Counted from the first letter of the stretch, positions 19,143 to 63,647 are shown. The stretch is 64,000 bases of DNA from Candidatus Magasanikiibacteriota bacterium (GCA_016182085.1 JACOYB010000004.1:211923-275922), one strand, 5' to 3'. Notes: generated by a model from the letters alone, not told the origin. A program made the numbers and translations.

Positions 19143-19246
19143 AAAATTAAACCTTAAACTGAAAGACGGCGACCCCGTCTTTCTTGATTTTTTACCCTAA
19201 GTTCGGTAACATAAATGAATAAAATTGTTTTTATATGGGCTCAGCT

Positions 19247-22200
19247 ATGAAAAAGTACGACCCGAAAAAAATTGAAAAAAAGTGGCAAACTTATTGGGCT
19301 AAAAATAAGACTTTTGAAGTTAAAGAAGATAAGAAGAAAGAAAAATTTTATTCACTCATAGAATTCCCTTACCCAAGCGGAGAAGGACTTCATGTTGGCC
19401 ACCCGCGTCCATTTACGGCCATGGACGTAATTTCTCGTAAAAAAAGAATGGAAGGCAAAAATGTTTTATTCCCAATTGGTTTTGATGCGTTTGGACTGCC
19501 TACCGAAAATTTTGCCATTAAAACCGGCAAGCCGCCGGCCGAAGTAACCAAAAAAAATATTGCCAATTTTACGCGCCAACTCAAGATGTTGGGCTTTAGC
19601 TTTGATTGGTCTCGTGCTGTTGATACTACCGACCCAAATTATTATAAATGGACGCAAGAGATTTTTTTACAATTTTTCAAACATGGACTTGCTTACAAAA
19701 AAAACCAACCGATAAATTGGTGTCCAAAAGATAAAATCGGTCTGGCTAACGAAGAAGTAGTAAACGGAAATTGTGAGCGTTGTGGTACGGCCGTGGAAAA
19801 AAGAAATAAGGAACAGTGGATGCTGGCGATTACCAAATATGCGGATAAACTTTTACAAGGATTAAAAAATGTAGATTATATTGAGCGAGCCAGATTGCAG
19901 CAAGAGAATTGGATCGGCAAAAGCGAAGGTGCGCTGGTTCGTTTTTCGGTTGTCATTCCCGCCAAAGCGGGAATCCAGACAATTCAATCGGACGCTGGAT
20001 TCCCGATCAAGTCGGGAATGACAACGGTTGAAGTATTTACTACCCGCCCAGATACAATTTTTGGAGCTACTTTTTTGGCTATCTCTCCGGAGTTGGCCAA
20101 GAGTTGGTTAGAAGTGGGTTGGCAGGCTAGCGAAGAAGTTAAAAAATATATAACTCAAGCGCTGGAAGCTCGAAGCGCGGCCACTACTCGCGAAGAGCAA
20201 GAAAAAACAGGTATTAGCGCTGGTATTGTAGCCATTAATCCAGTTTCCAAAAAAGAAATTCCAGTTTGGATTACCAATTATGTAATGGGCGAAGTCGGTA
20301 CAGGCGCGATTATGGGTGTGCCGGCACACGATGAGCGTGATTTTGATTTTGCCAAGAAGTTTGGTTTGCCAGTTAAGCAAGTGGTTATGCAAAATATTGT
20401 GGTGGCAGGCGCTGCCGCACCACGAGATAATAAGGGTTTAATACAACGTAAAGTAGTTACAGGTATTATTCGCAATCCAAAAAATGATTCTTTTTTACTT
20501 TTACGACGCGCAGATAAAGAAAGTTCTTTTGTCGGTGGTACCATTGAAGATGGAGAGGATGCTATTGCAGCATTACGTCGTGAAATTGTAGAGGAAACTG
20601 GATATACAGATTTTGAAATTAAAAATACTGTTTTTCCTAATTTTTTTGGTAATGGTTATAAATTACGCGTTGATAAAAATTGCCTTGATTTTGAATATTT
20701 TTATGCGGTTGAATTAAATAGCGAACTTCACCAAGAGGTCAGTAAGGAAGAAATGGCAAAGCACGAGCCATTTTGGGTACCACGTGCGGATGTGTCTAAA
20801 ACAGTCACGCTTACAACGCATCAATACATGTGGAATCTTTATCAAGAAAATAAATACTGCTTCTCTGAAGATGGTATTGCTGTAAGTTCTGATTTTTTAA
20901 ATGGATTAAAAACACCGGAGGCCAAAGAAAAAATGATTAGCTGGCTTGAAGAACATAAGATAGGCAAAAAACAAATAAATTATAAATTGCGCGATTGGGT
21001 ATTTTCTCGCCAGCGTTATTGGGGTGAGCCTATCCCATTGGTATATTGTGAACATTGTAAAAATAAAAAACAGAAAGCTTTATTAATTCATGGTTTTGAA
21101 GCTACTGGAGATAGTAATTGGTTACCGTGGATGAAAATAGAATTAGAAAAACAAGGCTTTGAAGTAATGGTGCCAGCTCTGCCGGATAGTAGTCATCCTG
21201 ATCTTGGAAAATGGCTAGCAGTGTTGCAGCCGTATTTTGATAAATTGGGAGAAAATGATGTTATTGTTGGCCATAGTCTTGGCAGCAAAGCAGCCTTGCA
21301 CCTGCTAGAGACAAGTAAAAAGAAAATTGGTCATGTTTATTTAGTTGCTTCGGCTATTGGGCTTTTGGAGGAGCGGGATTGGAGTAAATTTGAACGCGAA
21401 TGGAAAGGGTCTGATGTAAAAGCGTTGCAAAAATTTTGGGAGAAGCCAGTTAAGTGGGAAGCGGTGGAAAAGTCAGTTGGTAATAAAAATTTAATTTTAT
21501 CTTCTGATGATCCATACATTAAAAAAGAAACTCATAAAAATTTGCCACCAGGATGGTTTTATCAGTTATGGTCTGGCTTTGGTCATTTCCAGCAAAAACA
21601 AATTCCTGAATTGTTAAATTTAATTTTGCAGAGTAAAAACACTGGCTGGGTACCTCTTCCCGAAAGTGAATTGCCGCTCAAACTTCCAAAAGTAGAAAAG
21701 TATCAGCCTACCGATACAGGCGAATCTCCGTTGGCGGCAATGGAAAAATGGGTAAAAACTAAATGTCCAAATTGTGGTGGCCCGGCCAAACGAGAAACAG
21801 ATACCATGCCAAATTGGGCCGGCTCAAGCTGGTATTTTTTGGCGTATGCGATGGGTGGGAAAAAAAGATTAAAAGAAAAAGGCGATAAATTTTGGGATAA
21901 AGAAATGCTAAAACATTGGCAACCGGTAGATTGGTACAATGGGGGAATGGAGCATACAGTTTTGCATTTGCTCTACTCTCGTTTTTGGAATCAATTTTTG
22001 TATGATATTGGCATGGTGCCAACACCGGAGCCATACGCCAAACGCACTTCGCACGGCATGATTCTGGCCAAAGGCGGAGAAAAGATGAGTAAATCGCGCG
22101 GCAATGTGGTAAACCCGGATGAGATGGTAGAACAGTTTGGCGCCGATGCTTTGCGTACCTATATTATGTTTATGGGTCCGTTTGATCAGGCGGTAGAGTG

Positions 22201-22765
22201 GGATACAAATGGGTTGGTGGGAGTAAAAAGATTTTTGGATAAAGTTTGGCGTTTAGGGAATAGGATCGGGGAGCATAAATTAGATCATCCTTGGGCAATG
22301 CATAAAACAATAGCTGCCGTTTCTGCAAGAATTGACAGTATGAGTTTTAATACCGCCATTTCAGAAATGATGGTTTATGCAAATTTATTAGAAAATCATT
22401 TAGGAGAAAATAAAGAGAATGGCACAGTTTCTCGTGAGGCAGTTGAAGCACTTGTGCTGCTTTTATCACCTTTTGCTCCACACTTATGTGAGCAAATATG
22501 GAGCCAGCTTGGTCATGAAAAAAGTATTGCCTTTGAAAAATGGCCAGAAGCTAATCAGGAAGAGTTAGAAAAAAAACAGAATATTAATTTGGCCGTGCAA
22601 GTAAACGGTAAATTACGTGACACTGTAACTGCTTGGTCCGATATTTCAGAGGAAGAAGCAAAGAAAGCGGCACTCGCTAGTGAAAAAATCCAAAAGTGGC
22701 TGGAAGGCAAAGAGCCGAAAAAAGTTATTTATGTAAAAGGCAAGTTAGTGAGTATCGTGGTTTAG
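19247..22765 (+). CDS. leuS: leucyl-tRNA synthetase with embedded Nudix and YdeN/RBBP9-type hydrolase domains and one in-frame palindromic element
   Basis: HIGH motif (HVGHPR), CP1 editing-domain motifs (TTRPDTIFGATFLAISPE), KMSKS (KMSKSRGN) and the anticodon-binding region are all present. One uninterrupted ORF of about 1170 aa (from 19235/19247), versus about 800-860 aa in typical LeuS. See findings. Confidence 0.9.
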   Translation: MKKYDPKKIEKKWQTYWAKNKTFEVKEDKKKEKFYSLIEFPYPSGEGLHVGHPRPFTAMDVISRKKRMEGKNVLFPIGFDAFGLPTENFAIKTGKPPAEVTKKNIANFTRQLKMLGFSFDWSRAVDTTDPNYYKWTQEIFLQFFKHGLAYKKNQPINWCPKDKIGLANEEVVNGNCERCGTAVEKRNKEQWMLAITKYADKLLQGLKNVDYIERARLQQENWIGKSEGALVRFSVVIPAKAGIQTIQSDAGFPIKSGMTTVEVFTTRPDTIFGATFLAISPELAKSWLEVGWQASEEVKKYITQALEARSAATTREEQEKTGISAGIVAINPVSKKEIPVWITNYVMGEVGTGAIMGVPAHDERDFDFAKKFGLPVKQVVMQNIVVAGAAAPRDNKGLIQRKVVTGIIRNPKNDSFLLLRRADKESSFVGGTIEDGEDAIAALRREIVEETGYTDFEIKNTVFPNFFGNGYKLRVDKNCLDFEYFYAVELNSELHQEVSKEEMAKHEPFWVPRADVSKTVTLTTHQYMWNLYQENKYCFSEDGIAVSSDFLNGLKTPEAKEKMISWLEEHKIGKKQINYKLRDWVFSRQRYWGEPIPLVYCEHCKNKKQKALLIHGFEATGDSNWLPWMKIELEKQGFEVMVPALPDSSHPDLGKWLAVLQPYFDKLGENDVIVGHSLGSKAALHLLETSKKKIGHVYLVASAIGLLEERDWSKFEREWKGSDVKALQKFWEKPVKWEAVEKSVGNKNLILSSDDPYIKKETHKNLPPGWFYQLWSGFGHFQQKQIPELLNLILQSKNTGWVPLPESELPLKLPKVEKYQPTDTGESPLAAMEKWVKTKCPNCGGPAKRETDTMPNWAGSSWYFLAYAMGGKKRLKEKGDKFWDKEMLKHWQPVDWYNGGMEHTVLHLLYSRFWNQFLYDIGMVPTPEPYAKRTSHGMILAKGGEKMSKSRGNVVNPDEMVEQFGADALRTYIMFMGPFDQAVEWDTNGLVGVKRFLDKVWRLGNRIGEHKLDHPWAMHKTIAAVSARIDSMSFNTAISEMMVYANLLENHLGENKENGTVSREAVEALVLLLSPFAPHLCEQIWSQLGHEKSIAFEKWPEANQEELEKKQNINLAVQVNGKLRDTVTAWSDISEEEAKKAALASEKIQKWLEGKEPKKVIYVKGKLVSIVV
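19952..20022. repeat. GTCATTCCCGC-family palindromic element, copy A, in-frame in leuS
   Basis: GTCATTCCCGccaaagCGGGAATCCAG...CTGGATTCCCGatcaagtCGGGAATGAC encodes VIPAKAGIQTIQSDAGFPIKSGMTT. Confidence 0.85.
20400..20830 (+). other. Nudix hydrolase domain embedded in LeuS
   Basis: The Nudix box GX5EX7REUXEEXGU is matched exactly by G TIEDG E DAIAALR RE I V EE T G Y. It lies between the editing domain and the NYKLRDWVFSRQRYWGEPIP motif. Confidence 0.7.
21060..21640 (+). other. YdeN/RBBP9-family alpha/beta serine hydrolase domain embedded in LeuS
   Basis: LLIHGFEATGDSNWLPWMKIELEKQGFEV...VIVGHSLGSKAALHLLE...GFGHF resembles B. subtilis YdeN (HWFPWLKK...AHSLG...GGHF). It is inserted between the zinc-knuckle cysteines CEHC and CPNCGG. 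Confidence 0.65.
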
Positions 22766-31698: not shown

Positions 31699-32634
31699 AT
31701 GATTCAAGTTGAAACGCTGCAGCGTTCCATAAAAAATACCCTAACTTATTTTGATATAGCTGATTTTCCTCTTACCAAAGAGGAACTTTTTGTTTTTCTT
31801 TGGCAACCGCCCAGGGTTAGTTATGCGGATTTTTTAGAATTTTTACAGATAAATAATTCTGGATTTGAAACCAGACAGGGTTTTTATTTTTTGCCGGGCA
31901 GATCCGAACTTATAGAAACGAGGCAGCGCCGGCTGCTTATTTCCGAAAAAAAACTTAAGATCGCTCGTCGGGCGGCCGGAATAATTAGATCGGTTCCGTT
32001 TCTCAAAGCCGTGTTTGTCTGTAATACGGTCGGATCCGAACAAGCCAAAGAAGATAGTGATATAGATTTTTTTATAATTACGGCCAAAAATAGAATCTGG
32101 GTTACCAGATTGTTTGTTACATTTTTATTGAGTTTGTTTAGGTTAAGACGTGTTAAAGATCGCGTTAAAGATAAAATCTGCCTTAGTTTTTATGTGACCG
32201 AAGATAATTTGGATTTGTCTAAATTTAGAGTGGCTGACGATGATATTCACTTTGCTTTTTGGATAAACCAAATGTTGCCGCTATATGACCCGGATAATTA
32301 CTTCGCCAAATTTTTAGAGGCAAATAGCTGGACAAAAAAGTATTTACCGAATATAAATATTAGCAGCAGTGCATCTTATATTTTTAAAGTTTCCGATTCC
32401 CGCCTCGGGAAAATTTGGAAAAGTATCTGGGAAAAAATGTGGACAGGTGCTTATGGGGATTTGGTAAATGGTGAAGCCAAGAAAATACAATTATCCAAAA
32501 TGAAGTTTTCCGGCAATAAAATAGACAGAGGCGAAGATAAAGGCGTGGTAATTTCCGATTCTATTTTGAAGTTTCATGAGAAGGACACTAGGCTGCAATA
32601 TAGAGAATTATGGCAACACAAAATCGCATCCTAA
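31699..32634 (+). CDS. nucleotidyltransferase-domain protein (Pol-beta superfamily)
   Basis: The hG[GS]x9-13Dh[DE]h motif is present: CNTVGSEQAKEDSDIDFFII. Confidence 0.5.
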   Translation: MIQVETLQRSIKNTLTYFDIADFPLTKEELFVFLWQPPRVSYADFLEFLQINNSGFETRQGFYFLPGRSELIETRQRRLLISEKKLKIARRAAGIIRSVPFLKAVFVCNTVGSEQAKEDSDIDFFIITAKNRIWVTRLFVTFLLSLFRLRRVKDRVKDKICLSFYVTEDNLDLSKFRVADDDIHFAFWINQMLPLYDPDNYFAKFLEANSWTKKYLPNINISSSASYIFKVSDSRLGKIWKSIWEKMWTGAYGDLVNGEAKKIQLSKMKFSGNKIDRGEDKGVVISDSILKFHEKDTRLQYRELWQHKIAS

Positions 32635-34061
32635 TTTTAAAAAAAGCACAGGATTTGATCCTGATTGCGTTTTTGTTTTTGTTGCCTTGGCAGACCAGGT
32701 ACATTTGGCATTATGGCCAGTTGAATGGCGGGTATTGGGAGTATGGCACCGGCAGTATTTATGCGACCGAGATATTGTTGTGGATTATTTTAATTCTATT
32801 TTTTGTTAATAATTTTCTAAACAAAGAAGTTTGGGCGGGACTCATAAGGAGAAAAAATATTTTAGCACCTGTGTTTTTGCTGTTTTTGGCGGTACTTGGT
32901 TTTTCGGTAGTTTTTAGTGAAAATATTGGCGTGTCTTATGGTTATGTTTTTCACATCTTAGAAGGTATGGCTCTAATGACAGTGCTGGTGCGAAGTGGAC
33001 AATCGTTCGCTGTCATCCCGACCGCAGTGGAGGGATCCCTTATACCAAATCAAAAAGATTCCTCTATTACGCTTCGTTCCAATTGGAACGACAAATATTT
33101 GTATGCTATTTGGCTGGGCGCAGTAGGGCAGGGCATGTTGGCAATGTATCAATTTTTAAACCAAAGTGTTTTTGCGAGCAAATGGTTGGGGATGGCCGGG
33201 CAGGAGGCATATAATTTAGGTCCAAGCGTGATAGAGTTTGCCGACCAAAGATGGTTGCGCGCGTATGGAAGTTTTGGTTCGCCAAATTCACTCGGAATTT
33301 ATCTGGCAGTTTTGTTTGTCTTAGGTCTTATATTGTATTTAAAAACAGAATCCCCGCGTTATAAAATTTTAATCAGTATTGGCCAGCTATTTGTTTTGTC
33401 AGGTTTACTAGTCTCTTTTTCCCGAGGAGCGTGGCTCGCGGCTGTAGCCGGGGTGTTATGTTTATTTATAATTTTAATTTATAAGCGCAAACCGTCATTC
33501 CCGCCGCAAGCGGGAATCCAGGCAATCGGATCGGATACTAGATTCCCGCTTGCGGCGGGAATGACAAATTTGAAAGAATTTGCCAAACAAATAGTTTTTG
33601 TTTTAGCAGTAGTTGTATTTTGGGTAGCTATTTTTTATCCGGTATTTAACGCTCGGTTTAATCTGCAAAATCGCTTAGAAATAAAATCCGTTGCTGAAAG
33701 GCAGGAGCAGTATAGCGGGTCACTGGCGTTTATTAAAGTAAATTCAGTCTTAGGTGTTGGCCCGGGTGCATATACGTATGCGTTATATAAAAAATATTCA
33801 AATTTAGCTTCCTGGCAATATCAGCCAATCCACAATATTTATCTGCTTGGCGTAGTAGAAATGGGCGTAGTTGCGGCCGTGCTGCTTGCGTTCTTAATAG
33901 CAAATTTTGCTAAAATGATTATAAAAAATAATATTATTTATCTTCCGGTTCTAACTGCCCTGCTTGTTTCTGGCCTGTTTGATCATTGGCTTGCCAGCTT
34001 GTTTACGGGCATAATGTTGTGGTGGGTAATCTGGGGTCTAGGTCTAAAAAGAAACTCTTGA
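32610..34061 (+). CDS. O-antigen ligase / Wzy_C-family polytopic membrane protein with two in-frame palindromic-element insertions
   Basis: At least 10 TM segments and the SRGAW motif (LLVSFSRGAWLAAVAG). Elements at 33003-33031 and 33494-33565 are translated within the ORF. Confidence 0.65.
   Translation: MATQNRILILKKAQDLILIAFLFLLPWQTRYIWHYGQLNGGYWEYGTGSIYATEILLWIILILFFVNNFLNKEVWAGLIRRKNILAPVFLLFLAVLGFSVVFSENIGVSYGYVFHILEGMALMTVLVRSGQSFAVIPTAVEGSLIPNQKDSSITLRSNWNDKYLYAIWLGAVGQGMLAMYQFLNQSVFASKWLGMAGQEAYNLGPSVIEFADQRWLRAYGSFGSPNSLGIYLAVLFVLGLILYLKTESPRYKILISIGQLFVLSGLLVSFSRGAWLAAVAGVLCLFIILIYKRKPSFPPQAGIQAIGSDTRFPLAAGMTNLKEFAKQIVFVLAVVVFWVAIFYPVFNARFNLQNRLEIKSVAERQEQYSGSLAFIKVNSVLGVGPGAYTYALYKKYSNLASWQYQPIHNIYLLGVVEMGVVAAVLLAFLIANFAKMIIKNNIIYLPVLTALLVSGLFDHWLASLFTGIMLWWVIWGLGLKRNS
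33494..33565. repeat. GTCATTCCCGC-family palindromic element, copy B, in-frame
   Basis: Perfect 28-bp inverted repeat GTCATTCCCGCCGCAAGCGGGAATCCAG / CTAGATTCCCGCTTGCGGCGGGAATGAC. Encodes FPPQAGIQAIGSDTRFPLAAGMT. Confidence 0.85.
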
Positions 34062-42546: not shown

Positions 42547-42616
42547 TGTCATTCCCGCCAAAGCGGGAATCCAGCCAAATCAACAATTGTCTGGATTCCC
42601 GTTGTTATGGGAATGA
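42547..42616. repeat. GTCATTCCCGC-family palindromic element, copy C
   Basis: GTCATTCCCGccaaagCGGGAATCCAG...CTGGATTCCCGttgttatGGGAATGAC. Followed at 42640-42672 by a right-arm fragment of the second family. Confidence 0.8.
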
Positions 42617-42738
42617 CAACAAAACGGATAGGGATCCTTCGCGCCGCTCAGGATGATTCGCCGTGGGCGAATCACTTATCCCCATTATTTTTTTACTTTG
42701 TTTGTGTTATACTACAGTTACTTTAACCGATTGTTCGT

Positions 42739-43329: not shown

Positions 43330-43355
43330 TATGTTAGTTGCCAGTTTGGCGTAAT

Positions 43356-46300
43356 ATGACAAAGTTTCAAAAATTCGGAATAAAATTCTTGTTAGCAGTA
43401 TTTACCTTTATCACAATCGGCGGATCTTTGTTTTATGCTCGTCCGGCTCAAGCCTTTCCCGTAGAAATTACCTGGGATCCGGGCTATGTTTGGAGTGTAT
43501 ATAAAAGTTTTATAAAAGACGCGGCCGTAAGTATCAGCATTCAAACTTTTTCTTATTTTTTACGCCGAGTCGCGTATGATTCGGCAGTTTGGCTGGCTTC
43601 CGGAGGAAAGGGGCAGGCATCTTTTGCGTATGGAAAAAACTTCGGTGATTATTTAAAAGACGTGGGTGATAGCGCCGCGGGTGTGGCCATTGAAGCTTTG
43701 GGCGAAGACTTTGGTTTTAATTTATGTAAGATTCCGGACCCAAAAATAGATTTGGCTATGCGTATCGGGCTTACGCATAAATTCATGGATTTAAAGCCGG
43801 ATTTAAATACCGGACCGGGAGTGCGCGAGCCAACTTGTACCTGGTCAACATTTCAAAACGACGTCTTAAGCGTGGATAATTGGCAAAGCCAGTTTGGCAG
43901 CTCCGATAGTATAGCTCGTAAATTTAACGTGGCTTTTTCCGTAGAACAAACAGATATTGGTATCTTGCGCGGCGCTACAGATAAGATCAATCAATATGTG
44001 GCAAAGAAAATTGAAGCCGAGACGCTGCAAAGACAAGAAGGGGATGGCTATTTGCCTAAAACCACGCTTATTTCCGGAGATATTCTTACTCCGGGCAAAA
44101 ATATTTCCGAAGAAGCCCAAGCGCAGAATCCTAACAAACAAACCGAGTCAGCTCAGGCTGGATTTTTATCTACTCTTGGCACGGGCGCGGTCGGCACGAT
44201 TGCCAGCGCCGGTTCGATATTTTTTAACACCTTAGCTTCACAAATGTTAAAAAATTGGCAGAATAAAGGCATGCTGCCGTTTGGTATTGGTTGTGTGGCT
44301 GGCGTGGGTACCGAATGTAAAGATTTGCAAGATACGTTAAGTGATTTACAGGGACAGGTTTCTCGCGGCGGCAGGCAGGCCGCGCAGGCTTTGTTTAACG
44401 ATCTCTTAACGCCGCCAAATATCGCGGTTGATCAGTATAATGTTTTAGTAAATTTTACCAATTGTCCTACCAGTCCCGGTCCGGATAATTGTGTGGCGGA
44501 TGCCGGTTTGGCCCAGGCCGCTCAAGAGGCAAATTCTGGCCGCACCGTTACGATCGCTGAAGCTTTAGAAAAAAATTGGCTTCATAGTGAGTGGAGGTTA
44601 GTTTCTCCGGATAGGGTAGCCGATAATGTAGACCCAAGCTGTCACCAGCGAGCATATTGTTATGCCAATATCGCCAAACTGCGTAAAGCGCGAATTTTGC
44701 CGCTTGGTTTTGAAATCGCAGCCTTAAACAGCAACCCGGATCAGCCATGGACGCTCAAACAGGTTGTAGACGGATTTAACGATTGTAATTTTATTAGAGA
44801 TGTAAATGGTAATGTGGTGGGAGTTGAAAACGATCCGGTCAATAAACCGTTCTGTAGATTGATTGATCCAAATTGGGTCTTGAAAGCGCCGCCGTCAAAG
44901 TGTAATTTCCTGGCTTATGGAACCAGTCCGTATTTTTCCGGTACGCCAAATCGTATTCAGGAGTGTGTAAATATGAGTACCTGTGTGGCCTATGATAAGG
45001 ATGGAAATTGCGCCACGCAAGGATATTGCACCCGAGAAAAAAATGTTTGGAAAATAGACGCGGCTAAATGTGATTCGCAAAATCGCACCTGCCGTACATT
45101 CCAGGATAGTACCGGCAAGACCGTAAGCTATCTGTACAGAACCTTGGATACCGGTTTTTGTAATCAAGATACCGTAGGTTGCGCCGAGTATAGTTTAAAG
45201 CAAAATACTGCCGGCAATTGGATTGGATACGCGGAAAATGATCTGGGCTCTTTAGGAGAAAATTCTTCCGTTTACTTTAATAATAAAGTTTCCACCAACT
45301 GTTCATCTAATTCAGACGGATGCTCTTCTTTCCAGGTGGCCAACAGTTCAGAAAAATTATATCTCAAAAAAGCGCCATATTACTCGCAGTGTTATGATAC
45401 CGATCAAACTACCGCAGTTATAGATTGGCCGCGAACCGCCAGCGATTTAAACAGGCTCCCAAATAAACCAGCCTGTAACAATTATTCTCAGGCTTGTATT
45501 GAGAGTGAAGTAAACTGTAATTGGTACGCGCCAAGCAGTTACACTGGCGATGCTATTCCGGGTAAGTTTACGCCAGCGTCGGTAAACGAAGGTCAGATAG
45601 TTTGGAATGATCAGTGTGATGCCAGGTGCGTAGGGTATGCCGCATACAGGGAAATGCCAAGCAATTATTCCAACGGTCAACCTGTTTCTTACGTTATTCC
45701 TTCATCCGGCAATTCCTGTAGCGCCGCAGATGAGGGCTGTGCCAGCTTTACAAACCTCGGCACAACCGAAGGCGGTTTGGAAAAAGTTGAGCACTATTCT
45801 TATTTGCGACCTTGTATTTTGCCCGACACCACTAAACAAAAGACATTCTATACATACGAAGGATCGGCTGTGGGCGGTTTCCAACTGAAGAGTTTTATTT
45901 TAGAAAAAGATACGGATGGCAGTCCTAAATATTTTTATCGCACTGCCGATGATTTGGCTACGTATGCGGCTACTTGCAGTCAAAACCTCTATCAACAAGG
46001 TTTAGCCAGTCCGGATTGCCGCCAATTTAATGATGATCAAGGGGCTGTATATTACAAATTATTGTCAAAGACTATCGCGGTTGCCAGTAACTGTACGCCA
46101 TTTAGATTAAATGATACCGAACTACACGATGTTGCGTTAAATGAAGTCAATTGTTTGGCGCAAAGAGGAAAATGGGATGCAGCTGCCGGAAGTTGTCAGG
46201 TATGTTTCCAAAACGGAGAATACAGAGACGGCGAGTGTTTCTATTATGGCCTGCCCGGAAATACGCCTAATACGGCCGGTACCAGCAAACCATGCGCCGC

Positions 46301-49300
46301 GGCGGCAAATACCTGCCGTGCTTATAAAGGAAACACCGGCAACAATGTCCGTAATATTTTTACCAATAATTTTGAACAATCGGTCGCGTCCGATGCTTTA
46401 GCCGGCTGGGGACCATCTTCGGATATCGCGCAATCACTTGAATCAACCCGGTCCGGAGAACATTCCTTGTCATATAATGGCACAGGCGCAGTATACAAGG
46501 ATATAGTATTAACTCCAGGTGAAAGTTATGATCTTACGTTCTGGGCCAAAGGAGCGGTGGGAGAAACAGTTACAGTTACTTTAGAAAATAATCAAGTTTC
46601 TAATTTAGGCACAATCAGTGTCGGCGATGCTTGGCAAAATTATCACCTCGGTCCAGTAGAATTAACCGGAAATGTTTCCAGTACCAAATTGCAATTTGCA
46701 GTTAACGGCCGGTTGTTCCTGGATAATGTTCACCTCAAAGAAGTTACCGATTTTATCTATCTTGTTAAAAATTCCCTTAGTGTTGATCCGGTTTGTGATA
46801 GCAATCTAAACGATAATTTACCGGGCGAAGCCTTGGGTTGTTCGCAGTATCAGACCCCGGATAACAGGCCAATTTATTTAACCGGTTTTACTTCGCTGTG
46901 TCGTGAAAAAGCAATCGGTTGTACGGCAGTATATGATACGCGCAATACGCCGGATGAAGTCGGCCCACGAGCGTATAATGTTTGGCTATCCGGGCCGGAA
47001 GGTCAAAGTACCAGCCGAAATATTGTTGGCACGGAATATAGATGCCAGGTTGCGCTTGGTCAAAAAGGTTGTTATGTACATGTAACCGGCGCAAATTTAA
47101 GCTCTATAGTTGCCGGCGGAGGCGCGATAGTTACTTCAACTATATACGTGCAGCCAGATTCGCCAACTACCACGCCTCTATATTTAGTAGCTAGCCGTGA
47201 AGCGACCTGTAGTCCGGTTGATTTAGGCTGTACGAAAGCCGGAAAACTAGTACAGACTCCAACCGGCCCAACGTATACCGAGGTAACAGTTAAAAAAGAT
47301 CCAAGCAGCTTTAATACCACGCTTTGTCAGCAGGAAGCGGTCGGTTGTAACGCATACTCTTCAAGCGATGGGGCGCTGTACTTTAAAGATCCGCAGTATT
47401 TAGGTCAAAAAGTTTGCGCTTACAGAGATAACGTAACTAAAAACGGTGTTAGATATAACGGTTGGTTCTGGAAAGGCGTAGGCAAGTGTGGCGCCGGAAA
47501 CGCCAGCGATCCATTCTGCACCAAAGACAGCGATTGCGCGTCCGGAGTTACCTGTAATCAAAAAGATGAACAGCCATGCTATCCAAATTATTTGCAATCC
47601 GGAAATAACTATGGCCTGTGGTCTTATGGCGTAAGCAGTTCATATAATAATTTTGTCGGTGAATGTCCGGCTACCCAAAATGGCTGTACGGAATTTATAG
47701 ATCGCAATGAAAATAATAAGACCTACTATCTTATCAATGATGATAGATTAAAGACACAGCAAACCGAATGTAATGGACAGATCAGTGAAAAAAACGGCTG
47801 TATTCTGCTTGATAGAACTGATTCACCAAACAAATTATGGAACACGGCCGCTTCCTATGCTGTCAGCGCGGGCCAAAATAATAATTTGGTGGCGCCAGTG
47901 GCTGGAACAGGCACAGTGACAAATGATGCCAATGTTATTTTGAAAGTTAGTAGAGATAGAGAATGTGGAGAATGGCTCCAATGCCGCTCTTCGCATCGTG
48001 TCTTCGACACGCAATCGGGCAGCTACAAAGAAGTTTGTGACGCCATCGGCCGCTGTAATAAATCTTCGGATTCATACAGCAACGCTGACTTCATCAATTG
48101 CTCCAATTGGCTTGATAATAATCACGAACTCAGCAATCAGATTTTAACTGATGACGCGTACCGCAATCGCAATACCACTTGGAAAGGTCAGGACTTTAGC
48201 GGTTACAGTATTTTAAATACGTTCCCGATTGAAGAATTGTCAGAAGTAAATGTGGGCAACGCTACGGCGGCCGATTGGCGTTTGGCCAAGACGCTCGCTT
48301 GCGGCGGAGGTCCTAACTGCAGATCTGCCACCGACCCTAATAGTCCATCTTGCGGATTAACCAGTGTTGGGTTGCCATGCGGTCGCAATAATGCCGGTGT
48401 TTGTTTGGGTTCGGTAAATCCAGTTTGTGTCCAGGATTTAGACAGTCCGGTTGTTGGTGTTCCTCGTCAATCCATAGCGCCAAGTTGTCGCGCTTATCCG
48501 GAAGAAACTTCGCCATTCCCAAATAGCCAAGCTATCAGTGATTCGCTGGCATTTAATTCGGTAAATACCTGTAACGAAACATCTGGATTTAGCACCGATC
48601 CGGGTAAATATAACAGCTGTGAATGTAATTACACCAAAGTTACGTATGGAGACGCAGTCACCAAATATTGGAATTTCAAAAATCCGAACAATGAGGGTAT
48701 CTTGGATACCAATAATCAAAATATACAAGGCGTGGTAAGTGGAATTTGTGTTGGCGGAGATAGTGCCGACCGGGCTTGTGATTCAGATAGTGATTGTACC
48801 GGTGGCAGCTGTCAAAAATTAAAGAAACAATCCCGCCTTATCGGCTGGCAAGGCTATTGTATTGAATATGATTATTCCAGACCGCTCAATGCCGAACAAA
48901 ATAGTTTTGCTTGTTTAACTTGGTTCCCGAAAGATAATATTACTGGCGCGTTTGATATAAACAATCAGCATGTGGAGGCAGGGTTCCAGGCGACCGAAAC
49001 AAACGGTAAATATTACTGCTTGGAAGCAAAAGGTTATCAGGAAACCAATAGCAATCCAGCTGTAAATGGTAGCGGCGCGCTTACATATAACAGATTTTTG
49101 GGTGGTGGAAATATTTCTAAACCGGGTTCTAGTGATGATCCAGCTGATCCAGATAGAGCTAAGAGAGTTGTGGTTGCTGACCCAGCCAAGCCAATTTATC
49201 GGGATGAAATTGATTATATATTAGTATCTCCCGTAGGCGGTGGCGGTAGTTGGTTCCCAAATACTTCACAATCCTTCTATATTAGAAATGGTCTTATTAC

Positions 49301-50960
49301 TAAATATCAAGGAGCTTTATGGAATGTGCTTGAAGAACCGGATGGCCAACCTATCCAAGGAGCTCAACGATTATTTGGTGAAGCCATCAGTTTATCACCC
49401 GGACAGTATGTTTGGTCTGATGGGCGTGATAGGAACGCATGGTATATGCGTCATGATGATGGTCAAGGTGACGGGAACGACGACTATCAATTTATTGGCC
49501 CAAGTTCTGAGGTAATGGGGCAGTATGCTGATCTGCTAAGATCGGATTGTGCCGGTCCGATAGATGTACCGCAAAATTGTTGGACAAACAATACCGGTCC
49601 TAATTGCAGGGATCGTTATCAACGTGATTGTATAGTCGGTGGTGCCGACAATAGTGACGACGGCTGTTCTGTAAAAGTCGTATTTGATCCGAATGGTCGT
49701 TTAAATAGAATAAATTTAGTTTGTTTAACCGGTGATTCCCGACATGAAGAAGGTAGAAACTTCAACTTCTATGTTGGTTTGCGCGAACCTTGCGCCAACA
49801 TTGCTCAAACCGAAACAAATTCGTATACATCCGTTGGTTGGACAGACAGGTTGTGGCGTCAAAGTACATTTGCAATCCCAACATTAAATTATCGTAATTC
49901 ACTTATCAGTTCTCCGTATGGTAGTTTGGCTATGCCAAGTTCACTTGTGTCGGATAAACTGATTAATATATTTACCCACTATAATGCTGACACATTTGAT
50001 CCGCCGCCAGCCATAGCCGGCGCTCCATATTCTTGCGCAGGCACTTGTTTGCAAACTAACCCAACCGCGCAGGAAGGTTTGTCTGGCACGGCCAGCCAAA
50101 GAACCTCGGCGCAAGGACGGGATAGCCTGGCACAAATTTTTGCCAAAATTGATAATGTTTGGAATTGGGGCTTTAGTACTGCCAATTCAGCCTGGTCGTA
50201 TCAAGCAAATACAAGTCTTCCATATAACTTTACTGAAACTTTAACTTCAGCCGTAAATACGCCGCAAGTGCATACCTTGGGAGCCTGCAGACCCGGAGGA
50301 AAATGTTTGGAAGGTAATGTTGCCGGTATAAGTATAAACGATAGAGCCAGCGGTGATCTTGTGTTTAATAGCAATGTTGGTGTTGTTAATGCCAAATTCT
50401 TTGGCTTCGCCAACAAAGATCAAATGCCAATCAGAAAAATTAAATTGGATTGGGGAGACGGCAATGTTGTTTCTCTAGACGGTTATTTCCGTAATCAGCG
50501 CGGTACGGTAAATGGAACTTGTGGAACAGGAGGCAAATGTTTGGTCGGTTCTACCGATACCGGTAAATCATGTACATCAAATAGTGATTGTACAAACATA
50601 GATAATTGTTTTGCCGAAAGCCAAGCGCCAAACTTTGGACAAATAGTCGGCAAGACTTGCGACTCTGCCTATTTCCGATTTGATCATGTCTATCAGTGTT
50701 CTCGCGAAAGCAGTAATTGGACAAATAGTTGTCCAAACGCGCAAGCCCAGAGTTTGTATGGCGGTTGTTGTGTCTTCCAGCCAAAAGTTCAGCTCAAGGA
50801 TAATTGGGGATGGTGCAATGGGGTTTGTGGGGATGCGGGAAGTCCAGGTGGAACAGGTTGTTACGATGCAAATGTAGGCACAGGAATAAAGGAATGTGAA
50901 ACTTTGCCATCTGCATATACACCTTCTTCTGCCAGAGTAATTGTTGCACCTGCTGATTAA
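43356..50960 (+). CDS. giant (about 2535 aa) secreted Cys/Asn/Gly/Thr-rich surface protein
   Basis: Single uninterrupted ORF. The track starts at TTG 43338; ATG 43356 gives signal peptide MTKFQKFGIKFLLAVFTFITIGGSLFYARPAQA. Roughly 150 or more cysteines, many as CxxC and C-x(n)-C pairs. No catalytic motifs recognised. Confidence 0.8.
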   Translation: MTKFQKFGIKFLLAVFTFITIGGSLFYARPAQAFPVEITWDPGYVWSVYKSFIKDAAVSISIQTFSYFLRRVAYDSAVWLASGGKGQASFAYGKNFGDYLKDVGDSAAGVAIEALGEDFGFNLCKIPDPKIDLAMRIGLTHKFMDLKPDLNTGPGVREPTCTWSTFQNDVLSVDNWQSQFGSSDSIARKFNVAFSVEQTDIGILRGATDKINQYVAKKIEAETLQRQEGDGYLPKTTLISGDILTPGKNISEEAQAQNPNKQTESAQAGFLSTLGTGAVGTIASAGSIFFNTLASQMLKNWQNKGMLPFGIGCVAGVGTECKDLQDTLSDLQGQVSRGGRQAAQALFNDLLTPPNIAVDQYNVLVNFTNCPTSPGPDNCVADAGLAQAAQEANSGRTVTIAEALEKNWLHSEWRLVSPDRVADNVDPSCHQRAYCYANIAKLRKARILPLGFEIAALNSNPDQPWTLKQVVDGFNDCNFIRDVNGNVVGVENDPVNKPFCRLIDPNWVLKAPPSKCNFLAYGTSPYFSGTPNRIQECVNMSTCVAYDKDGNCATQGYCTREKNVWKIDAAKCDSQNRTCRTFQDSTGKTVSYLYRTLDTGFCNQDTVGCAEYSLKQNTAGNWIGYAENDLGSLGENSSVYFNNKVSTNCSSNSDGCSSFQVANSSEKLYLKKAPYYSQCYDTDQTTAVIDWPRTASDLNRLPNKPACNNYSQACIESEVNCNWYAPSSYTGDAIPGKFTPASVNEGQIVWNDQCDARCVGYAAYREMPSNYSNGQPVSYVIPSSGNSCSAADEGCASFTNLGTTEGGLEKVEHYSYLRPCILPDTTKQKTFYTYEGSAVGGFQLKSFILEKDTDGSPKYFYRTADDLATYAATCSQNLYQQGLASPDCRQFNDDQGAVYYKLLSKTIAVASNCTPFRLNDTELHDVALNEVNCLAQRGKWDAAAGSCQVCFQNGEYRDGECFYYGLPGNTPNTAGTSKPCAAAANTCRAYKGNTGNNVRNIFTNNFEQSVASDALAGWGPSSDIAQSLESTRSGEHSLSYNGTGAVYKDIVLTPGESYDLTFWAKGAVGETVTVTLENNQVSNLGTISVGDAWQNYHLGPVELTGNVSSTKLQFAVNGRLFLDNVHLKEVTDFIYLVKNSLSVDPVCDSNLNDNLPGEALGCSQYQTPDNRPIYLTGFTSLCREKAIGCTAVYDTRNTPDEVGPRAYNVWLSGPEGQSTSRNIVGTEYRCQVALGQKGCYVHVTGANLSSIVAGGGAIVTSTIYVQPDSPTTTPLYLVASREATCSPVDLGCTKAGKLVQTPTGPTYTEVTVKKDPSSFNTTLCQQEAVGCNAYSSSDGALYFKDPQYLGQKVCAYRDNVTKNGVRYNGWFWKGVGKCGAGNASDPFCTKDSDCASGVTCNQKDEQPCYPNYLQSGNNYGLWSYGVSSSYNNFVGECPATQNGCTEFIDRNENNKTYYLINDDRLKTQQTECNGQISEKNGCILLDRTDSPNKLWNTAASYAVSAGQNNNLVAPVAGTGTVTNDANVILKVSRDRECGEWLQCRSSHRVFDTQSGSYKEVCDAIGRCNKSSDSYSNADFINCSNWLDNNHELSNQILTDDAYRNRNTTWKGQDFSGYSILNTFPIEELSEVNVGNATAADWRLAKTLACGGGPNCRSATDPNSPSCGLTSVGLPCGRNNAGVCLGSVNPVCVQDLDSPVVGVPRQSIAPSCRAYPEETSPFPNSQAISDSLAFNSVNTCNETSGFSTDPGKYNSCECNYTKVTYGDAVTKYWNFKNPNNEGILDTNNQNIQGVVSGICVGGDSADRACDSDSDCTGGSCQKLKKQSRLIGWQGYCIEYDYSRPLNAEQNSFACLTWFPKDNITGAFDINNQHVEAGFQATETNGKYYCLEAKGYQETNSNPAVNGSGALTYNRFLGGGNISKPGSSDDPADPDRAKRVVVADPAKPIYRDEIDYILVSPVGGGGSWFPNTSQSFYIRNGLITKYQGALWNVLEEPDGQPIQGAQRLFGEAISLSPGQYVWSDGRDRNAWYMRHDDGQGDGNDDYQFIGPSSEVMGQYADLLRSDCAGPIDVPQNCWTNNTGPNCRDRYQRDCIVGGADNSDDGCSVKVVFDPNGRLNRINLVCLTGDSRHEEGRNFNFYVGLREPCANIAQTETNSYTSVGWTDRLWRQSTFAIPTLNYRNSLISSPYGSLAMPSSLVSDKLINIFTHYNADTFDPPPAIAGAPYSCAGTCLQTNPTAQEGLSGTASQRTSAQGRDSLAQIFAKIDNVWNWGFSTANSAWSYQANTSLPYNFTETLTSAVNTPQVHTLGACRPGGKCLEGNVAGISINDRASGDLVFNSNVGVVNAKFFGFANKDQMPIRKIKLDWGDGNVVSLDGYFRNQRGTVNGTCGTGGKCLVGSTDTGKSCTSNSDCTNIDNCFAESQAPNFGQIVGKTCDSAYFRFDHVYQCSRESSNWTNSCPNAQAQSLYGGCCVFQPKVQLKDNWGWCNGVCGDAGSPGGTGCYDANVGTGIKECETLPSAYTPSSARVIVAPAD

Positions 50961-52125: not shown

Positions 52126-55100
52126 ATGCTTGCGAGACTTAAAAATAGTTTACTTTTAATTTTCAGTAGAAGCTGGAATTTTTTGCGTCCTCGTCAGAAG
52201 CTTGGGTTAGTCAGTTTTGTAATTATTTCAAGTTTAATTATAGCTGTTTGGTTTATATTTACTCCCGTATCTTACGCGCAGAGTTTGGCTGGGGCGGGTG
52301 AGTGGCTTCTGGAATTATTTTCTGATCTTCTTTTTGCGCTTGCCGGTCTTTTTATTAAGCTAACTTTTTTCTCTCTAAAATTTATTATAGAAGTAGCCGG
52401 CTACAATGGCTTTATAGATTCTCCGGCGGTTATTGTTGGCTGGGTAATGGTGCGCGACATTACCAATATGTTTTTTGTGGTGGTTTTGCTCATTATATCA
52501 TTCGGCACGATTTTGGGCTTAGAACAATATGAATATAAAAAATTATTGGTCAAGCTTCTCATGGCTGCAGTTATCGTAAATTTTAGCCGCCTTATCTGCG
52601 GACTAATTATAGATATTGCCCAAGTGGTGATGGTAACATTTGTAAACGGGATTGCCGCCACGGCCAGCGGCAATTTGGTAAACATGTTTCAGGTGGATCA
52701 GATATTTAAATTGGCAGAAGGGCAAACAACCAAGGTTGGTTCTACCTTTGAAATTTTTTTGGCAGCTGTAGCCGCGATTGTGTTTGCTACCATGATGCTT
52801 GTTACCATGCTAACTTTTTTGGTTTTACTCTTGGCGCGCATGGCCATGCTTTGGGTGCTCATCGTTTTATCTCCGTTTGCCTTTGTGTTAAATGTTTTGC
52901 CGCAGACAGAAAAATACGCCAGTCAGTGGTGGGAGCAGTTTGGAGGTCATGTCGTAGCTGGCCCCATTATCGCTTTTTTTCTTTGGTTGTCATTTGTAAC
53001 CGTCGGCGCGGGCACGGCTTTTGATGAAATTAAAAAACATAATGCTTTGCCGCAAAGTCAAACTGCCGCCTCGCCGGAAGAAGAGCAAACCGGTATTACT
53101 CAAATCATGAGTTGGGCAAAGATGGCCAATTTTGCGATTGCAATTGCGATGCTGCTTGCCGGCGCGAAAATGGCCCAACAGCTTGGTGTGGTTGGCGGAG
53201 GTTTGATGGGCAAGGCCGGAGATTTGGGAAAGAAAGTAGCGATGTATGCCTCCGGTTTACAGGCTGCCAGATGGACTGCGAGTAATGTGTTAAAGCCAGC
53301 AGCTAAGTATGGTTTAATGAAAATGCCGCTTGGCGGTGAATTTTGGCAGAGAAGGGGCAGGTCTATTAAAGCCTGGGCTTCTTATAAGACTACTAAAAAA
53401 GGCTGGCTTGGGCTGCCTTCCACAGAATCTAGACTAATAGCGGCTGGAGAAAGGATAGACAAGGCTTATGGCAAAGAAACTCAAGATATAGGTAAGCAAT
53501 CACAAGAAGTCCAGGATTTAGTAGCTGCTCGCGATGCGGCTTTGCAGAGTGAAGATTATCATAAAGCCGATGAGCTTGGTAAGAAACTCAAAAAGGCAGG
53601 TTTTGATGTTGGTGAAGCAGAAGAAGGGCCAAGAGAAGGGCTGACAGAGTTAAAAAAAGCTTATGGCGGTGGTACAAGAGCGTGGGCCCGTATTGGTTTG
53701 GCCCTGTGGACAACCAGCGAGTTTGATAAAGAATATACCAACGATAAAGAAGCGAGGGCAAAATATGCCAAAGAACAAATGGAGCATATTGTTAGTACCA
53801 GTAAAACTCCTATCGGTAAAGAAAAAACCGAGGCCGAACAAGATCTAGAAAGAGCCAAAGAAACAGGAGGTAGAATTAAAAAAAGAAAATTGGCAGACGT
53901 AGCAGAAAAAAGAAGCAAAATAGATAAAAAAATAGAAGCAGATCTAGCGGCAGGAAAGTCAGTAGAAGACGTAAAAAATAAATATGGTGAAAGGCGGTAT
54001 TGGGATTATACTCGTTTGAAAAACGCGGATAAATCGGCAGTACAGGCAGAGGAAATTACACATGCGATGGCGGAAGATGAAAAGCTTAGAGCGGCTGAAG
54101 CTAGACACGCTGAACGCGGGAGTGTCAAGGGCCATCTAAGAGAAGAAGAGGCGCATACAGCCAAGGCTAAATCAAAGCAGATCGAAGAAGGATTACAAGC
54201 TGAAAAAGAACTGGAAGAATTAAAAGAGATAAAGAAATTATTGGAAGGAAAAGGCGCCTCGCAGCAGGCAGTTATTAATTTTACCAAAGCGCAAACCGCC
54301 AATATAAAAGAAGATTTTGATATTTCTAAAGAAGAGGCGGAAGTAGAACAGCGCGCCGAATCATTTAGACAAATGGGAGATGATTTAAGAGCCAATCAGG
54401 TGCTGGCAGAAATGCAGTCAAAGGCCGCTAAAAGAGAAGGTGACCGCGTGTCGGCAATGAGTTGGGAAGATAAGACCTTTGCCTTGCAAGCCTTGCCGGT
54501 AAAAATACAGCAATTAGAACAAGATATTGCGGCGGCTTATGTTGGGGGAAATGCAGAAGAAGCAACTCGTTTAAAGGAAATAAAAAATAAAACAGTTAAG
54601 CGAACAATGGCTTTGCAGACATCTCTTAAATCAGAAGGTAAAGAAGCGGCAGAATTGGCTGATAGTGGAGCGTTAAAAGCAATCGGTTGGAACGAAGTTA
54701 TTGATGATGCTAATCGTATTAGAGCGGAGCTAAGTAAAATTTTAGGCAAAGTAGTAGCAGTCGGAGACGAGGCAGCGGCAGCTGAGGATGTCTATAGAGC
54801 ATTTGGCGGTATAGAAAAAGCTCAAGGGGCTATGACATTGTATAGTAATGCCAATAAAACAGCGGGCTTAAAGGGCGCTGGCTCACTCTTTGGTTTGGTT
54901 GGGGATAGAAGAAATGCCTCGGGACAACTAGAAAGATTTTTTGGACAATATGATCAAGCCACAAATACTGTTAATGCTGGACGGGTAAAAGTTGGAGATG
55001 GTTTTTATCCTACAAAAATAGCAGAGGTAGATCATAGAAAATGGATAACTGCTAATGGATATGGAAAAATAAATGTAGACAATAAAATTGTAGGGTTTGA

Positions 55101-58113: not shown

Positions 58114-58186
58114 GTCATTCCCGCCCGGGAGCGGGAATCCAGGCAATTCGACCGGATACTAGATTCCCGCTTGCGGCGGGAATGAC
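58114..58186. repeat. GTCATTCCCGC-family palindromic element, copy D
   Basis: GTCATTCCCGCCCGGGAGCGGGAATCCAG...CTAGATTCCCGCTTGCGGCGGGAATGAC. Confidence 0.8.
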
Positions 58187-58209
58187 AACAAAAACGTAAA
58201 ATAAAAAGT

Positions 58210-63490: not shown

Positions 63491-63647
63491 GTCATCCCTT
63501 CGACAGGCTCAGGGCAGGCTCTGAATGAAGTGAAGGATATCCGTCAGTTCAATTGTCATTCCCATTGCAATGGGAATCCAGACAATCGTCGACTGGATTC
63601 CCGCTTTGGCGGGAATGACAGAGATTCTTCGCTCTGCTCAGAATGAC
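63491..63647. mobile_element. nested palindromic elements: GTCATTCCCGC-family copy E (63555-63619) inserted into a GTCATyCTGAAC-family element
   Basis: Left arm GTCATCCCTTCGACAGG...CTGAATGAAGTGAAGGATATCCGTC and right arm GACAGAGATTCTTCGCTCTGCTCAGAATGAC match copy I (42240-42316). Copy E replaces the central loop. Confidence 0.7.

Follow-up and report, generated by a model that had tools for sequence, protein, structure and literature searches.

The 64-kb window analysed here, a stretch of Candidatus Magasanikiibacteriota DNA (GCA_016182085.1, JACOYB010000004.1:211923–275922) to whose full length all window counts refer, contains a leuS gene for leucyl-tRNA synthetase (LeuRS) in which we identified two embedded enzyme domains, a Nudix domain and a YdeN/RBBP9-type alpha/beta serine hydrolase. 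According to the open reading frame (ORF) listing of the window, the gene occupies a single uninterrupted frame on the + strand (19235..22765, stop codon included) and encodes 1176 aa. The alignments to LeuRS from T. thermophilus (Tt; 1h3n, E 8e-181, which provides the Tt numbering used throughout) and to the homologues begin at M5, corresponding to nucleotide 19247, and the ATG at this position is the probable true start. The ORF scored 920.5 bits with TIGR00396, the NCBIfam equivalog model of bacterial LeuRS (cut-off 548.4); because of the inserts, this match is split into four stretches. The Pfam scan of the ORF also identified tRNA-synt_1. An earlier note, made from the sequence of this DNA, had described one ORF with HIGH, CP1 editing motifs, KMSKS and an anticodon-binding domain, and our analysis located all of these within the one frame.

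The modules follow the order seen in LeuRS from T. thermophilus (1H3N/2BYT) and E. coli (4AQ7), that is, first Rossmann half, ZN-1, CP1, ZN-2, second Rossmann half with KMSKS, anticodon-binding domain and C-terminal domain; all coordinates of these features are on the + strand. The N-terminal half of the Rossmann catalytic domain together with the ZN-1 region spans 19247..19915 (Pfam, 1h3n alignment and motif) and features HVGH (residues 53–56, 19391–19402) as its version of the HIGH signature. This is followed by the first part of the CP1 editing domain (19916..20389, residues 228–385), matched by PF13603 at residues 224–387 with 168 bits over profile positions 1–143 of 185. Up to this point query residues 5–385 align with Tt 1–363, with a 19-residue gap in the Tt sequence opposite query residues ~237–255. 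The CP1 editing motifs, TTRPDT (residues 269–274, 20039–20056) and GTGAIMGVPAHDERD (residues 355–369, the GTG...HDxRD motif), are placed after ZN-1 and are near-invariant across homologues with or without cassettes. Beyond the Nudix domain, 20858..21058 covers the remainder of CP1, the return linker (NYKLRDWVFSRQRYWG) and, with CEHC (residues 605–608), one half of ZN-2; here query 542–608 corresponds to Tt 376–442, and the alignment block ends at the first ZN-2 CxxC. After the hydrolase come the other half of ZN-2 (CPNC, residues 844–847, 21764–21775) and the other half of the catalytic domain, as far as KMSKS (residues 950–954, 22082–22096), together spanning 21644..22096 (query 804–956, Tt 443–590). 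The anticodon-binding and C-terminal tRNA-binding domains complete the protein at 22097..22762 (query 950–1176, Tt 637–876), with the Anticodon_1 family (PF08264) assigned by Pfam to residues 1022–1131. Judged from its sequence, this gene encodes a bacterial-type LeuRS with the motifs of both its synthetic and its editing site intact.

Whereas HIGH, TTRPDT, GTG...HDxRD and KMSKS are kept as in the T. thermophilus and E. coli enzymes, the query differs from both in its lack of the leucine-specific domain. This domain is present in LeuRS of these two species and is not universal. In the 1h3n alignment, the corresponding region just before KMSKS (Tt ~591–636) has no counterpart in the query. The spacing between GGxEH and KMSKS is 47 residues here and 47–50 in all 120 homologues that we surveyed, so the domain is missing in all of them. 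In comparison with Tt LeuRS the query carries, as additional sequence, the 156-aa Nudix domain, the 195-aa hydrolase and a repeat-derived peptide of 19–24 aa at the start of CP1. No second LeuS, Nudix or YdeN-like ORF was found within the window.

The Nudix cassette (20390..20857, residues 386–541) is defined by PF00293, the alignments and a structure model, and we refer to its position as site A. Its 156 residues stand for a 12-residue loop of CP1 (Tt 364–375), for a net gain of 144 residues. The Pfam NUDIX family matched residues 405–522 with 57.6 bits (cut-off 21.1, E 1.7e-15), and the insert features a complete Nudix box, GTIEDGEDAIAALRREIVEETGY (residues 435–457, 20537–20605), that fits the GX5EX7REUXEEXGU pattern in the layout G435-x5-E441-x7-R449-E450-I-x-E453-E454-x-G456-Y457. 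These box residues are highly conserved among the LeuRS homologues: G435, E450, E454 and G456 are present in 71/71 sequences, E453 in 70/71, R449 in 69/71 and E441 in 67/71. The earlier note had claimed a module of about 140 aa with an exact Nudix box, and this proved correct apart from the measured size. It had also placed the module where the leucyl-specific insertion normally sits; we found instead that it lies inside CP1, and that the leucine-specific domain is absent.

Structure models of the Nudix and hydrolase domains were predicted individually from homologue alignments. The Nudix model (predicted local distance difference test, pLDDT, 91.4) adopts an alpha/beta/alpha sandwich and has 565 Nudix-type matches in the PDB at E<=1e-3, the top ones with template-modelling (TM) scores of 0.64–0.71. 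The best matches are small pyrophosphohydrolases, including NTP pyrophosphohydrolases: the MutT/Nudix protein 2azw, YfaO/NudI, the diadenosine tetraphosphate (Ap4A) hydrolases of Aquifex and human, and RppH (TM 0.6–0.7, identity 13–22%); the Ap4A/Ap6A hydrolases 3i7u, 1vc8 and 4ijx are among the top fold matches. The full Nudix box and the sandwich fold are common to the query domain and to MutT, NudI/YfaO, the Ap4A hydrolases and RppH. Unlike these enzymes, it is embedded in LeuRS and reaches no characterised subfamily, all NCBIfam equivalogs scoring below their cut-offs (MutT 31.8/148, RppH 29.5/118 and NudI 20.6/95 bits). Going by its fold matches, the domain would be a Mg-dependent pyrophosphohydrolase of nucleoside-diphosphate-X compounds, with nucleoside triphosphates (NTP) or diadenosine polyphosphates (ApnA) as the likeliest substrate class, and would serve a house-cleaning role.

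The hydrolase cassette (21059..21643, residues 609–803) is likewise defined by a Pfam family (PF06821), the alignments and its model. It is inserted exactly between Tt 442 and 443, a position we refer to as site B, and displaces nothing. The earlier note's YdeN/RBBP9-like hydrolase of about 190 aa, spliced into the zinc knuckle between its CEHC and CPNC halves, is thereby confirmed in both identity and position, at a measured 195 aa. Pfam assigned residues 616–776 to Ser_hydrolase with 49.5 bits (cut-off 22, E 6e-13), and the LLIHGF, GHSLG and GFGHF motifs are all present. From the alignments, the HG oxyanion motif corresponds to residues 619–620, the nucleophile to Ser681 within GHSLG (21269–21283), and the remaining triad residues to Asp759 (21509–21511) and His784 (21584–21586). 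Among proteins of solved structure, the insert is closest in sequence to YdeN of B. subtilis (1uxo, E 1.6e-12) and to RBBP9 (E 1e-8), with 22–24% identity. The model (pLDDT 94.5) is a complete, lid-less alpha/beta hydrolase, for which Foldseek returned 1uxo (E 4e-14, TM 0.76/0.85, root-mean-square deviation 2.2 A) and human RBBP9 (E 5e-13, TM ~0.72/0.82), with the next alpha/beta hydrolase family four to five orders of magnitude behind, at E 7e-9. S681, H784 and H619-G620 are conserved in 60/60 sequences and D759 in 56/60, including three stand-alone relatives that are 32–36% identical. These three were identified by a word-indexed domain-only search, which returned no stand-alone protein for the Nudix domain, a difference that is an effect of the word index and not of biology.

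The Ser-Asp-His triad, HG oxyanion motif, GHSxG elbow and lid-less fold are shared with YdeN (1UXO), RBBP9 and ML-005, which, unlike the query hydrolase, are stand-alone proteins and not embedded within another enzyme. ML-005, a member of PF06821, is a short-chain esterase (PMC6119806), whereas RBBP9 is an aminopeptidase that removes N-terminal hydrophobic or aromatic residues, depends on the alpha-amine being free and traps acyl adducts of Leu/Ile/Phe/Tyr/Trp (PMC8866121). By analogy with these characterised family members, the cassette may be an esterase or an aminoacyl-bond hydrolase. In the phmmer sequence alignment, the residues that anchor the alpha-amine in RBBP9 fall on the second E of ‘LLEERD’ (E108), on L682 (S76) and on a V (Y99), and these columns are unconserved in the family alignment.

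PF00293, PF06821 and tRNA-synt_1 were all detected in the one ORF, both inserts above the curated cut-offs, and no frameshift or stop separates the modules anywhere in the frame. This architecture, down to its junctions, is found again in LeuS of related Patescibacteria, as the earlier note had suggested might be checked, and in independent assemblies from ENA, NCBI, JGI and Logan, some of them contigs of 120–830 kb. It is represented in dozens of 90%-identity clusters, with many metagenome-assembled genomes (MAGs) deposited since 2015; the closest relative (P0001) is 78% identical, and dozens more clusters with both PF00293 and PF06821 extend down to 48% identity. The synteny trxA-leuS...ComEC is also common to the contigs of P0001 and P0003. 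We considered that the hydrolase insert (from after CEHC to ‘...SKN|T’) might be an intein or mobile element and rejected this reading: the Pfam scan of the ORF detected no Hint/intein or homing-endonuclease family at E<=0.1, the fold is wholly that of an alpha/beta hydrolase, and the Nudix and alpha/beta-hydrolase folds leave no part of either insert unexplained. The GC content is lower over the inserts (0.32–0.40) than over much of the core (0.40–0.46), which would be in line with an assembly chimera, a hidden frameshift or a removable intein-like element; set against the clean frame, the recurrence of the architecture with conserved junctions and the lack of any detected intein signal, we give such an artefact practically no weight.

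The two domains also appear to be maintained. In comparisons with relatives that carry orthologous cassettes (P0001, P0003 and L002), the ratio of nonsynonymous to synonymous substitution rates (dN/dS) was 0.13–0.18 for the Nudix domain, 0.07 for the hydrolase and 0.08–0.09 for the LeuRS core; near-saturated dS makes these ratios approximate, whereas dN can be compared directly. Both domains are under purifying selection like that on the core and, with catalytic residues conserved over 60–74 homologues, are predicted to be retained as working enzymes. Inactive passengers, either decaying remnants or structural or binding domains devoid of catalysis, would fit loops that tolerate meaningless repeat-derived peptides (see below) and the existence of relatives that lack one insert or the other. 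We consider this very improbable in view of catalytic residues that are near-invariant in 60–71 sequences, dN/dS of 0.07–0.18 and compact, high-confidence models.

To place the cassettes across the family, the spacing between conserved LeuRS motifs was surveyed in the 120 homologues and domains were assigned with Pfam. Site A, the CP1 loop, measures ~70 residues when empty, ~215 with a Nudix domain, ~275 with HAD_2 and ~421 with a Nudix-HAD tandem, and in one homologue it is occupied by a methyltransferase. Site B, in ZN-2, measures 14 residues when empty and ~208 with the hydrolase. At site C, before GGxEH and between SSWYFLRY and VDWYNGG, four homologues (P0025, P0039, P0048 and P0118) share a conserved insert of ~180 aa that has no Pfam match at E<=0.1. 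Site D, at the start of CP1, accommodates Ham1-like domains, Nudix copies or hydrolases in other homologues. Nudix instances within LeuRS were distributed over all four sites (A, 140; D, 20; B and C, 5 each), a single LeuRS having as many as 3 copies, and the nearest relatives of the site-D copies are often site-A copies; the hydrolase was placed mainly at site B (76), with 5 instances at D and 3 at A. Besides these two domains, the cargo seen in LeuRS loops includes HAD, methyltransferase, Ham1-like and PD-(D/E)XK_3 domains and the ~180-aa unassigned domain. A separate insert at residues 580–800 of P0058 has a faint nucleotidyltransferase-like match.

The combinations of these modules vary widely. 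Of the 120 top-ranking relatives, 37 combine the two domains, 34 have a Nudix domain but no hydrolase, another 37 show the reverse, and 13 lack both (10 with HAD only and 3 empty). Relatives whose cores are 78–85% identical to that of the query carry Nudix and hydrolase, Nudix and HAD, HAD and hydrolase, all three, hydrolase only or HAD only. Since every combination is found among cores this similar, the modules are, as far as comparison of the homologues can tell, facultative and exchangeable cassettes that the LeuRS loops at sites A–D accept, lose and exchange. Consistent with replacement, the cores of L001 and L007 are 78–80% identical to that of the query, whereas their Nudix domains at the same site are just 28–29% identical to the query insert. 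Rapid evolution of the cassettes was considered as the source of this low identity and rejected: the orthologous cassettes of P0001, P0003 and L002 are under normal purifying selection, so the L001 and L007 values indicate a different cassette and not fast drift. In the comparison of the query with L002, dS over the CP1 and Nudix region (20039–20857) was 0.54–0.74 against 1.1–2.3 for the rest of the gene, which suggests intragenic recombination.

Among species-representative genomes, cassette-bearing LeuRS were identified in Magasanikbacteria, Harrisonbacteria, Doudnabacteria, Parcubacteria, ‘Patescibacteria group’ and Saccharibacteria MAGs; the nearest named relative is Candidatus Magasanikbacteria RIFOXYD1_FULL_40_23, with 86% core identity. 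Three MAGs labelled Bacilli, Bacillales or Tenericutes (L026, L030 and L033) encode a LeuS of ~938 aa with a Nudix domain at site A and 40–44% identity to the query, and represent either spread beyond Patescibacteria or mislabelled bins. Firmicutes LeuRS of ~800 aa in the species-representative genomes were without inserts. In four cases (L023, L032, L035 and L042), tblastn matches spread over several ORFs resembled a LeuS interrupted at site D by other genes; we rejected this reading after Pfam identified the upstream ORF as the class-I paralogue MetS, with PNP/TatD/HAD genes between it and an ordinary LeuS. In one of these, from a Liptonbacteria MAG, a stand-alone HAD_2 gene (L032, 4760–5401, − strand) lies just upstream of the LeuS locus, whose order is MetS-HAD-TatD-LeuS. 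A free PD-(D/E)XK_3 gene (PF13366) is located between trxA and leuS on the contig of the closest relative P0001 (L082, 552–935), and PF13366 also occurs inside a LeuS protein (P0142, residues 25–138). The free gene beside leuS and the domain within LeuS may hint at the route by which cargo enters.

The peptide that the query carries at site D derives from a 72-bp palindromic repeat element (19952..20023, + strand), identified by repeat search, which lies in frame, encodes VIPAKAGIQTIQSDAGFPIKSGMT (residues 240–263) and is found opposite the 19-residue Tt gap. This ~72-bp repeat (GTCATTCCCGCC..GCGGGAATCCAG...CTGGATTCCCG..CGGGAATGAC) was found at five positions in the window, against a chance expectation of zero (19952–20023, 33495–33570, 42548–42620, 58116–58190 and 63548–63619); one copy is in leuS, one in a Wzy_C-like ORF (32610..34061) and three are intergenic. 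About 30 of the 120 LeuRS homologues, including P0012, P0023, P0038, P0039, P0043, P0051, P0061, P0070, P0077, P0094, P0097, P0107 and P0115, have in-frame repeat-like peptides of 15–55 residues at this site, between QENWIG and TTRPDT. Examples such as VIASEAKQS...APRND, VILNEAKRSEESLSQ..., VILNEAKRSEE..., VIARSEATSQS... and VIPAEAGIQ...SGMT look like translations of other palindromic repeat families, and site D is, on this comparison, a recurrent landing site for small mobile repeats. The repeat-derived peptides show directly that the loop tolerates insertion and that mobile repeats bring DNA into it.

Taking these observations together, the reading that we find most likely, and hold with moderate confidence, is that the cassettes are accessory enzymes acting autonomously, with LeuRS as their essential and insertion-tolerant carrier. 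The gene would be the organism's working LeuRS and, at the same time, the carrier of two self-contained hydrolase cassettes that are predicted to be catalytically competent, the Nudix domain looped out of a surface loop of CP1 and the hydrolase out of the ZN-2 zinc knuckle at its tip. Each would fold and act alone as a small-molecule hydrolase, tethered to and co-expressed with the LeuRS of a very small genome, and would not form an integral step of LeuRS proofreading. Nudix enzymes, Ham1/ITPase and HAD nucleotidases are the classic set of house-cleaning enzymes, and we favour autonomous cargo because the cargo list (Nudix, Ham1-like and HAD) fits this nucleotide house-cleaning set, because unrelated enzymes share slots that even take junk peptides, and because the editing site is never degenerate.

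Several observations weigh against autonomous cargo. The first is the distribution of the Nudix domain, for which we carried out an exhaustive phmmer search of the insert against 1.84 billion cluster representatives (50% identity) that returned 319 relatives, the best 150 of which were classified. Of these 150, 93 have a LeuRS core, 42 are short proteins (stand-alone or fragments) and 15 are longer proteins with no detected core. Ten of the 15 longer proteins were scanned with Pfam: three match the editing domain weakly and probably represent additional fragments of LeuRS, whereas the remaining ones are multi-Nudix proteins, a His_Phos_1-Nudix fusion (P0230) and an M17 (leucyl) aminopeptidase of 1318 aa with GNAT domains and a Nudix domain that matches the query insert at E 9e-10 (P0182). 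The aminopeptidase indicates that cassette insertion is not restricted to LeuRS. Nevertheless, the closest relatives are overwhelmingly LeuS-embedded (93, and at least three fragments, of 150), spread over four sites and with as many as three copies per LeuRS, and this LeuS-centred pattern looks, from the sequence comparisons, like repeated selection for a Nudix activity on LeuRS; it is the best argument for a functional link. Common descent, with long residence in LeuRS and intragenic duplication, could be an alternative source of the pattern, as a common host is to be expected for close relatives. The chemistry of RBBP9, with its aminoacyl-X substrates, free alpha-amine and trapped Leu/Ile adducts (PMC8866121), would by analogy fit aminoacyl esters. 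Furthermore, neither the Nudix domain, the hydrolase nor the HAD cassette reached any NCBIfam equivalog cut-off, and no substrate is assignable to them on this basis.

A functional link of this kind could take the form of quality control or clearance in cis, in which the Nudix domain hydrolyses LeuRS-made Ap4A/ApnA or adenylate-derived nucleotides and the hydrolase deacylates mis-acylated tRNA-Leu or hydrolyses non-cognate aminoacyl-adenylate. In addition to the 93–96 of the 150 nearest Nudix cluster representatives that are LeuS-embedded at sites A–D, this possibility draws on the Ap4A/Ap6A hydrolases among the top Nudix fold matches and on the cleavage by RBBP9 of aminoacyl-X bonds bearing a free alpha-amine (PMC8866121). 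ApnA hydrolases have a conserved marker tyrosine in the X-loop, ~17 residues after the Nudix box (Dunn 1999, summarised in PMC5389931). Here Y475, 18 residues past the box and by its position a candidate counterpart of the marker, is Y or F in 64/65 sequences and lies in the model within strand E79–86. The HAD cassettes at site A could be pyrophosphatases or nucleotidases for pyrophosphate (PPi) or AMP. However, every homologue preserves the editing motifs of CP1 whatever the cassettes, which leaves the cassettes nothing to replace, and these come and go among near-identical cores. The methyltransferase, Ham1 and PD-(D/E)XK cassettes found in the same loops have no obvious link with leucylation, the Nudix domain fits NTPases, RppH and ApnA hydrolases equally well at 13–22% identity, and the RBBP9 anchor E108 pairs with a non-conserved position in the sequence alignment. 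In addition, aminoacyl-adenylate is a mixed anhydride and not a nucleoside-diphosphate-X, and by established Nudix chemistry is thus not a typical Nudix substrate. Overall, we regard quality control in cis as possible though rather doubtful. The earlier note had proposed a new module of this type; the identity of both hydrolases stands by sequence and by fold, whereas intact editing motifs, varying combinations and unrelated cargo leave its tie to LeuRS quality control unsupported.

The exchange of cassettes also bears on a different role, conflict-driven protection, in which they would detoxify LeuRS inhibitors that mimic aminoacyl-adenylate (of the agrocin-84, microcin-C or aminoacyl-sulfamoyl-adenosine type) or else act on the target to repair Leu-tRNA that a toxin has modified. 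MccF peptidase, MccE GNAT and HinT phosphoramidase are known immunity analogues of such a function. Mosaic presence and absence, replacement by a distant homologue at one site and the low-dS tract over CP1 and Nudix suggest exchange, and the cargo (serine hydrolase of the kind that cleaves aminoacyl-X, Nudix, HAD and methyltransferase, together with GNAT in P0182 and in the NCBIfam model ileS_w_GNAT) resembles known detoxifying enzymes in general terms. We nevertheless judge protection improbable, given that no toxin or immunity genes were seen beside leuS and that dN/dS is purifying and not diversifying. More broadly, patescibacterial LeuRS might be a dedicated docking platform whose exchangeable cassettes act on its own active-site chemistry, clearing ApnA/PPi/AMP, non-cognate aminoacyl compounds or adenylate-mimic toxins; we offer this as a speculative proposal and consider it unlikely.

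Next to leuS lie trxA, genes for a histidine kinase and a response regulator, and ComEC. Directly after trxA and ~40 nt before leuS there is a terminator-like hairpin at 19163–19200 (GACGGCGACCCCGTC, then a T-run). The spacer between trxA and leuS is ~92 nt, too short for a T-box leader, and no leader of T-box size is present upstream of leuS. Elsewhere in the window, a 2540-aa ORF (43338–50960) has a weak match to CBM_4_9 alone and a 1077-aa ORF (52126–55359) is without Pfam match; TraG-like ATPase genes follow the two at 58922–60799.

Few enzymes have been studied as much as aminoacyl-tRNA synthetases, and the architecture of the bacterial ones is taken to be fixed. In a literature search we found no paper on LeuRS with Nudix or alpha/beta-hydrolase inserts, or on cassette insertion into an aminoacyl-tRNA synthetase of Patescibacteria. 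The architecture is, on this search, apparently undescribed in the literature; in the databases it is neither rare nor new, with dozens of 90%-identity clusters. Synthetases with added domains are already known, and it is the combinatorial behaviour of the cassettes that is the surprising part. NCBIfam NF040702 (isoleucine--tRNA ligase, N-acetyltransferase domain-containing), judged by its model name, is a precedent for a class-I synthetase with an extra enzyme domain, and CP1 itself and the free-standing trans-editing factors AlaX, YbaK and DTD are precedents for hydrolytic proofreading modules in or near synthetases. In IleRS-GNAT, CP1 and AlaX/YbaK/DTD the modules are fixed and have a defined role, in contrast to the LeuRS of Patescibacteria, where several unrelated enzymes occupy several loops in fast-changing combinations.

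This bacterial radiation uses at least four LeuRS loops as slots, in which at least six types of enzyme (Nudix, YdeN/RBBP9 hydrolase, HAD, Ham1-like, methyltransferase and PD-(D/E)XK) are found alongside unassigned domains. The finding bears on annotation, as cassette-bearing leuS genes carry inconsistent public labels, including ‘leucine--tRNA ligase’, ‘class I tRNA ligase family protein’, ‘alpha/beta fold hydrolase’ and ‘hypothetical protein’. If the cassettes act on LeuRS chemistry, they would constitute a new modular form of proofreading or self-protection, and a docking platform, if real, would represent modular, horizontally shuffled protection or quality control in cis of an aminoacyl-tRNA synthetase, with no described counterpart. 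If they are passengers, their positions would provide a map of insertion-tolerant LeuRS sites for protein engineering, and the family would be a natural example of ultra-small genomes packing accessory enzymes into an essential protein, in which the origin and turnover of domain insertions can be followed.

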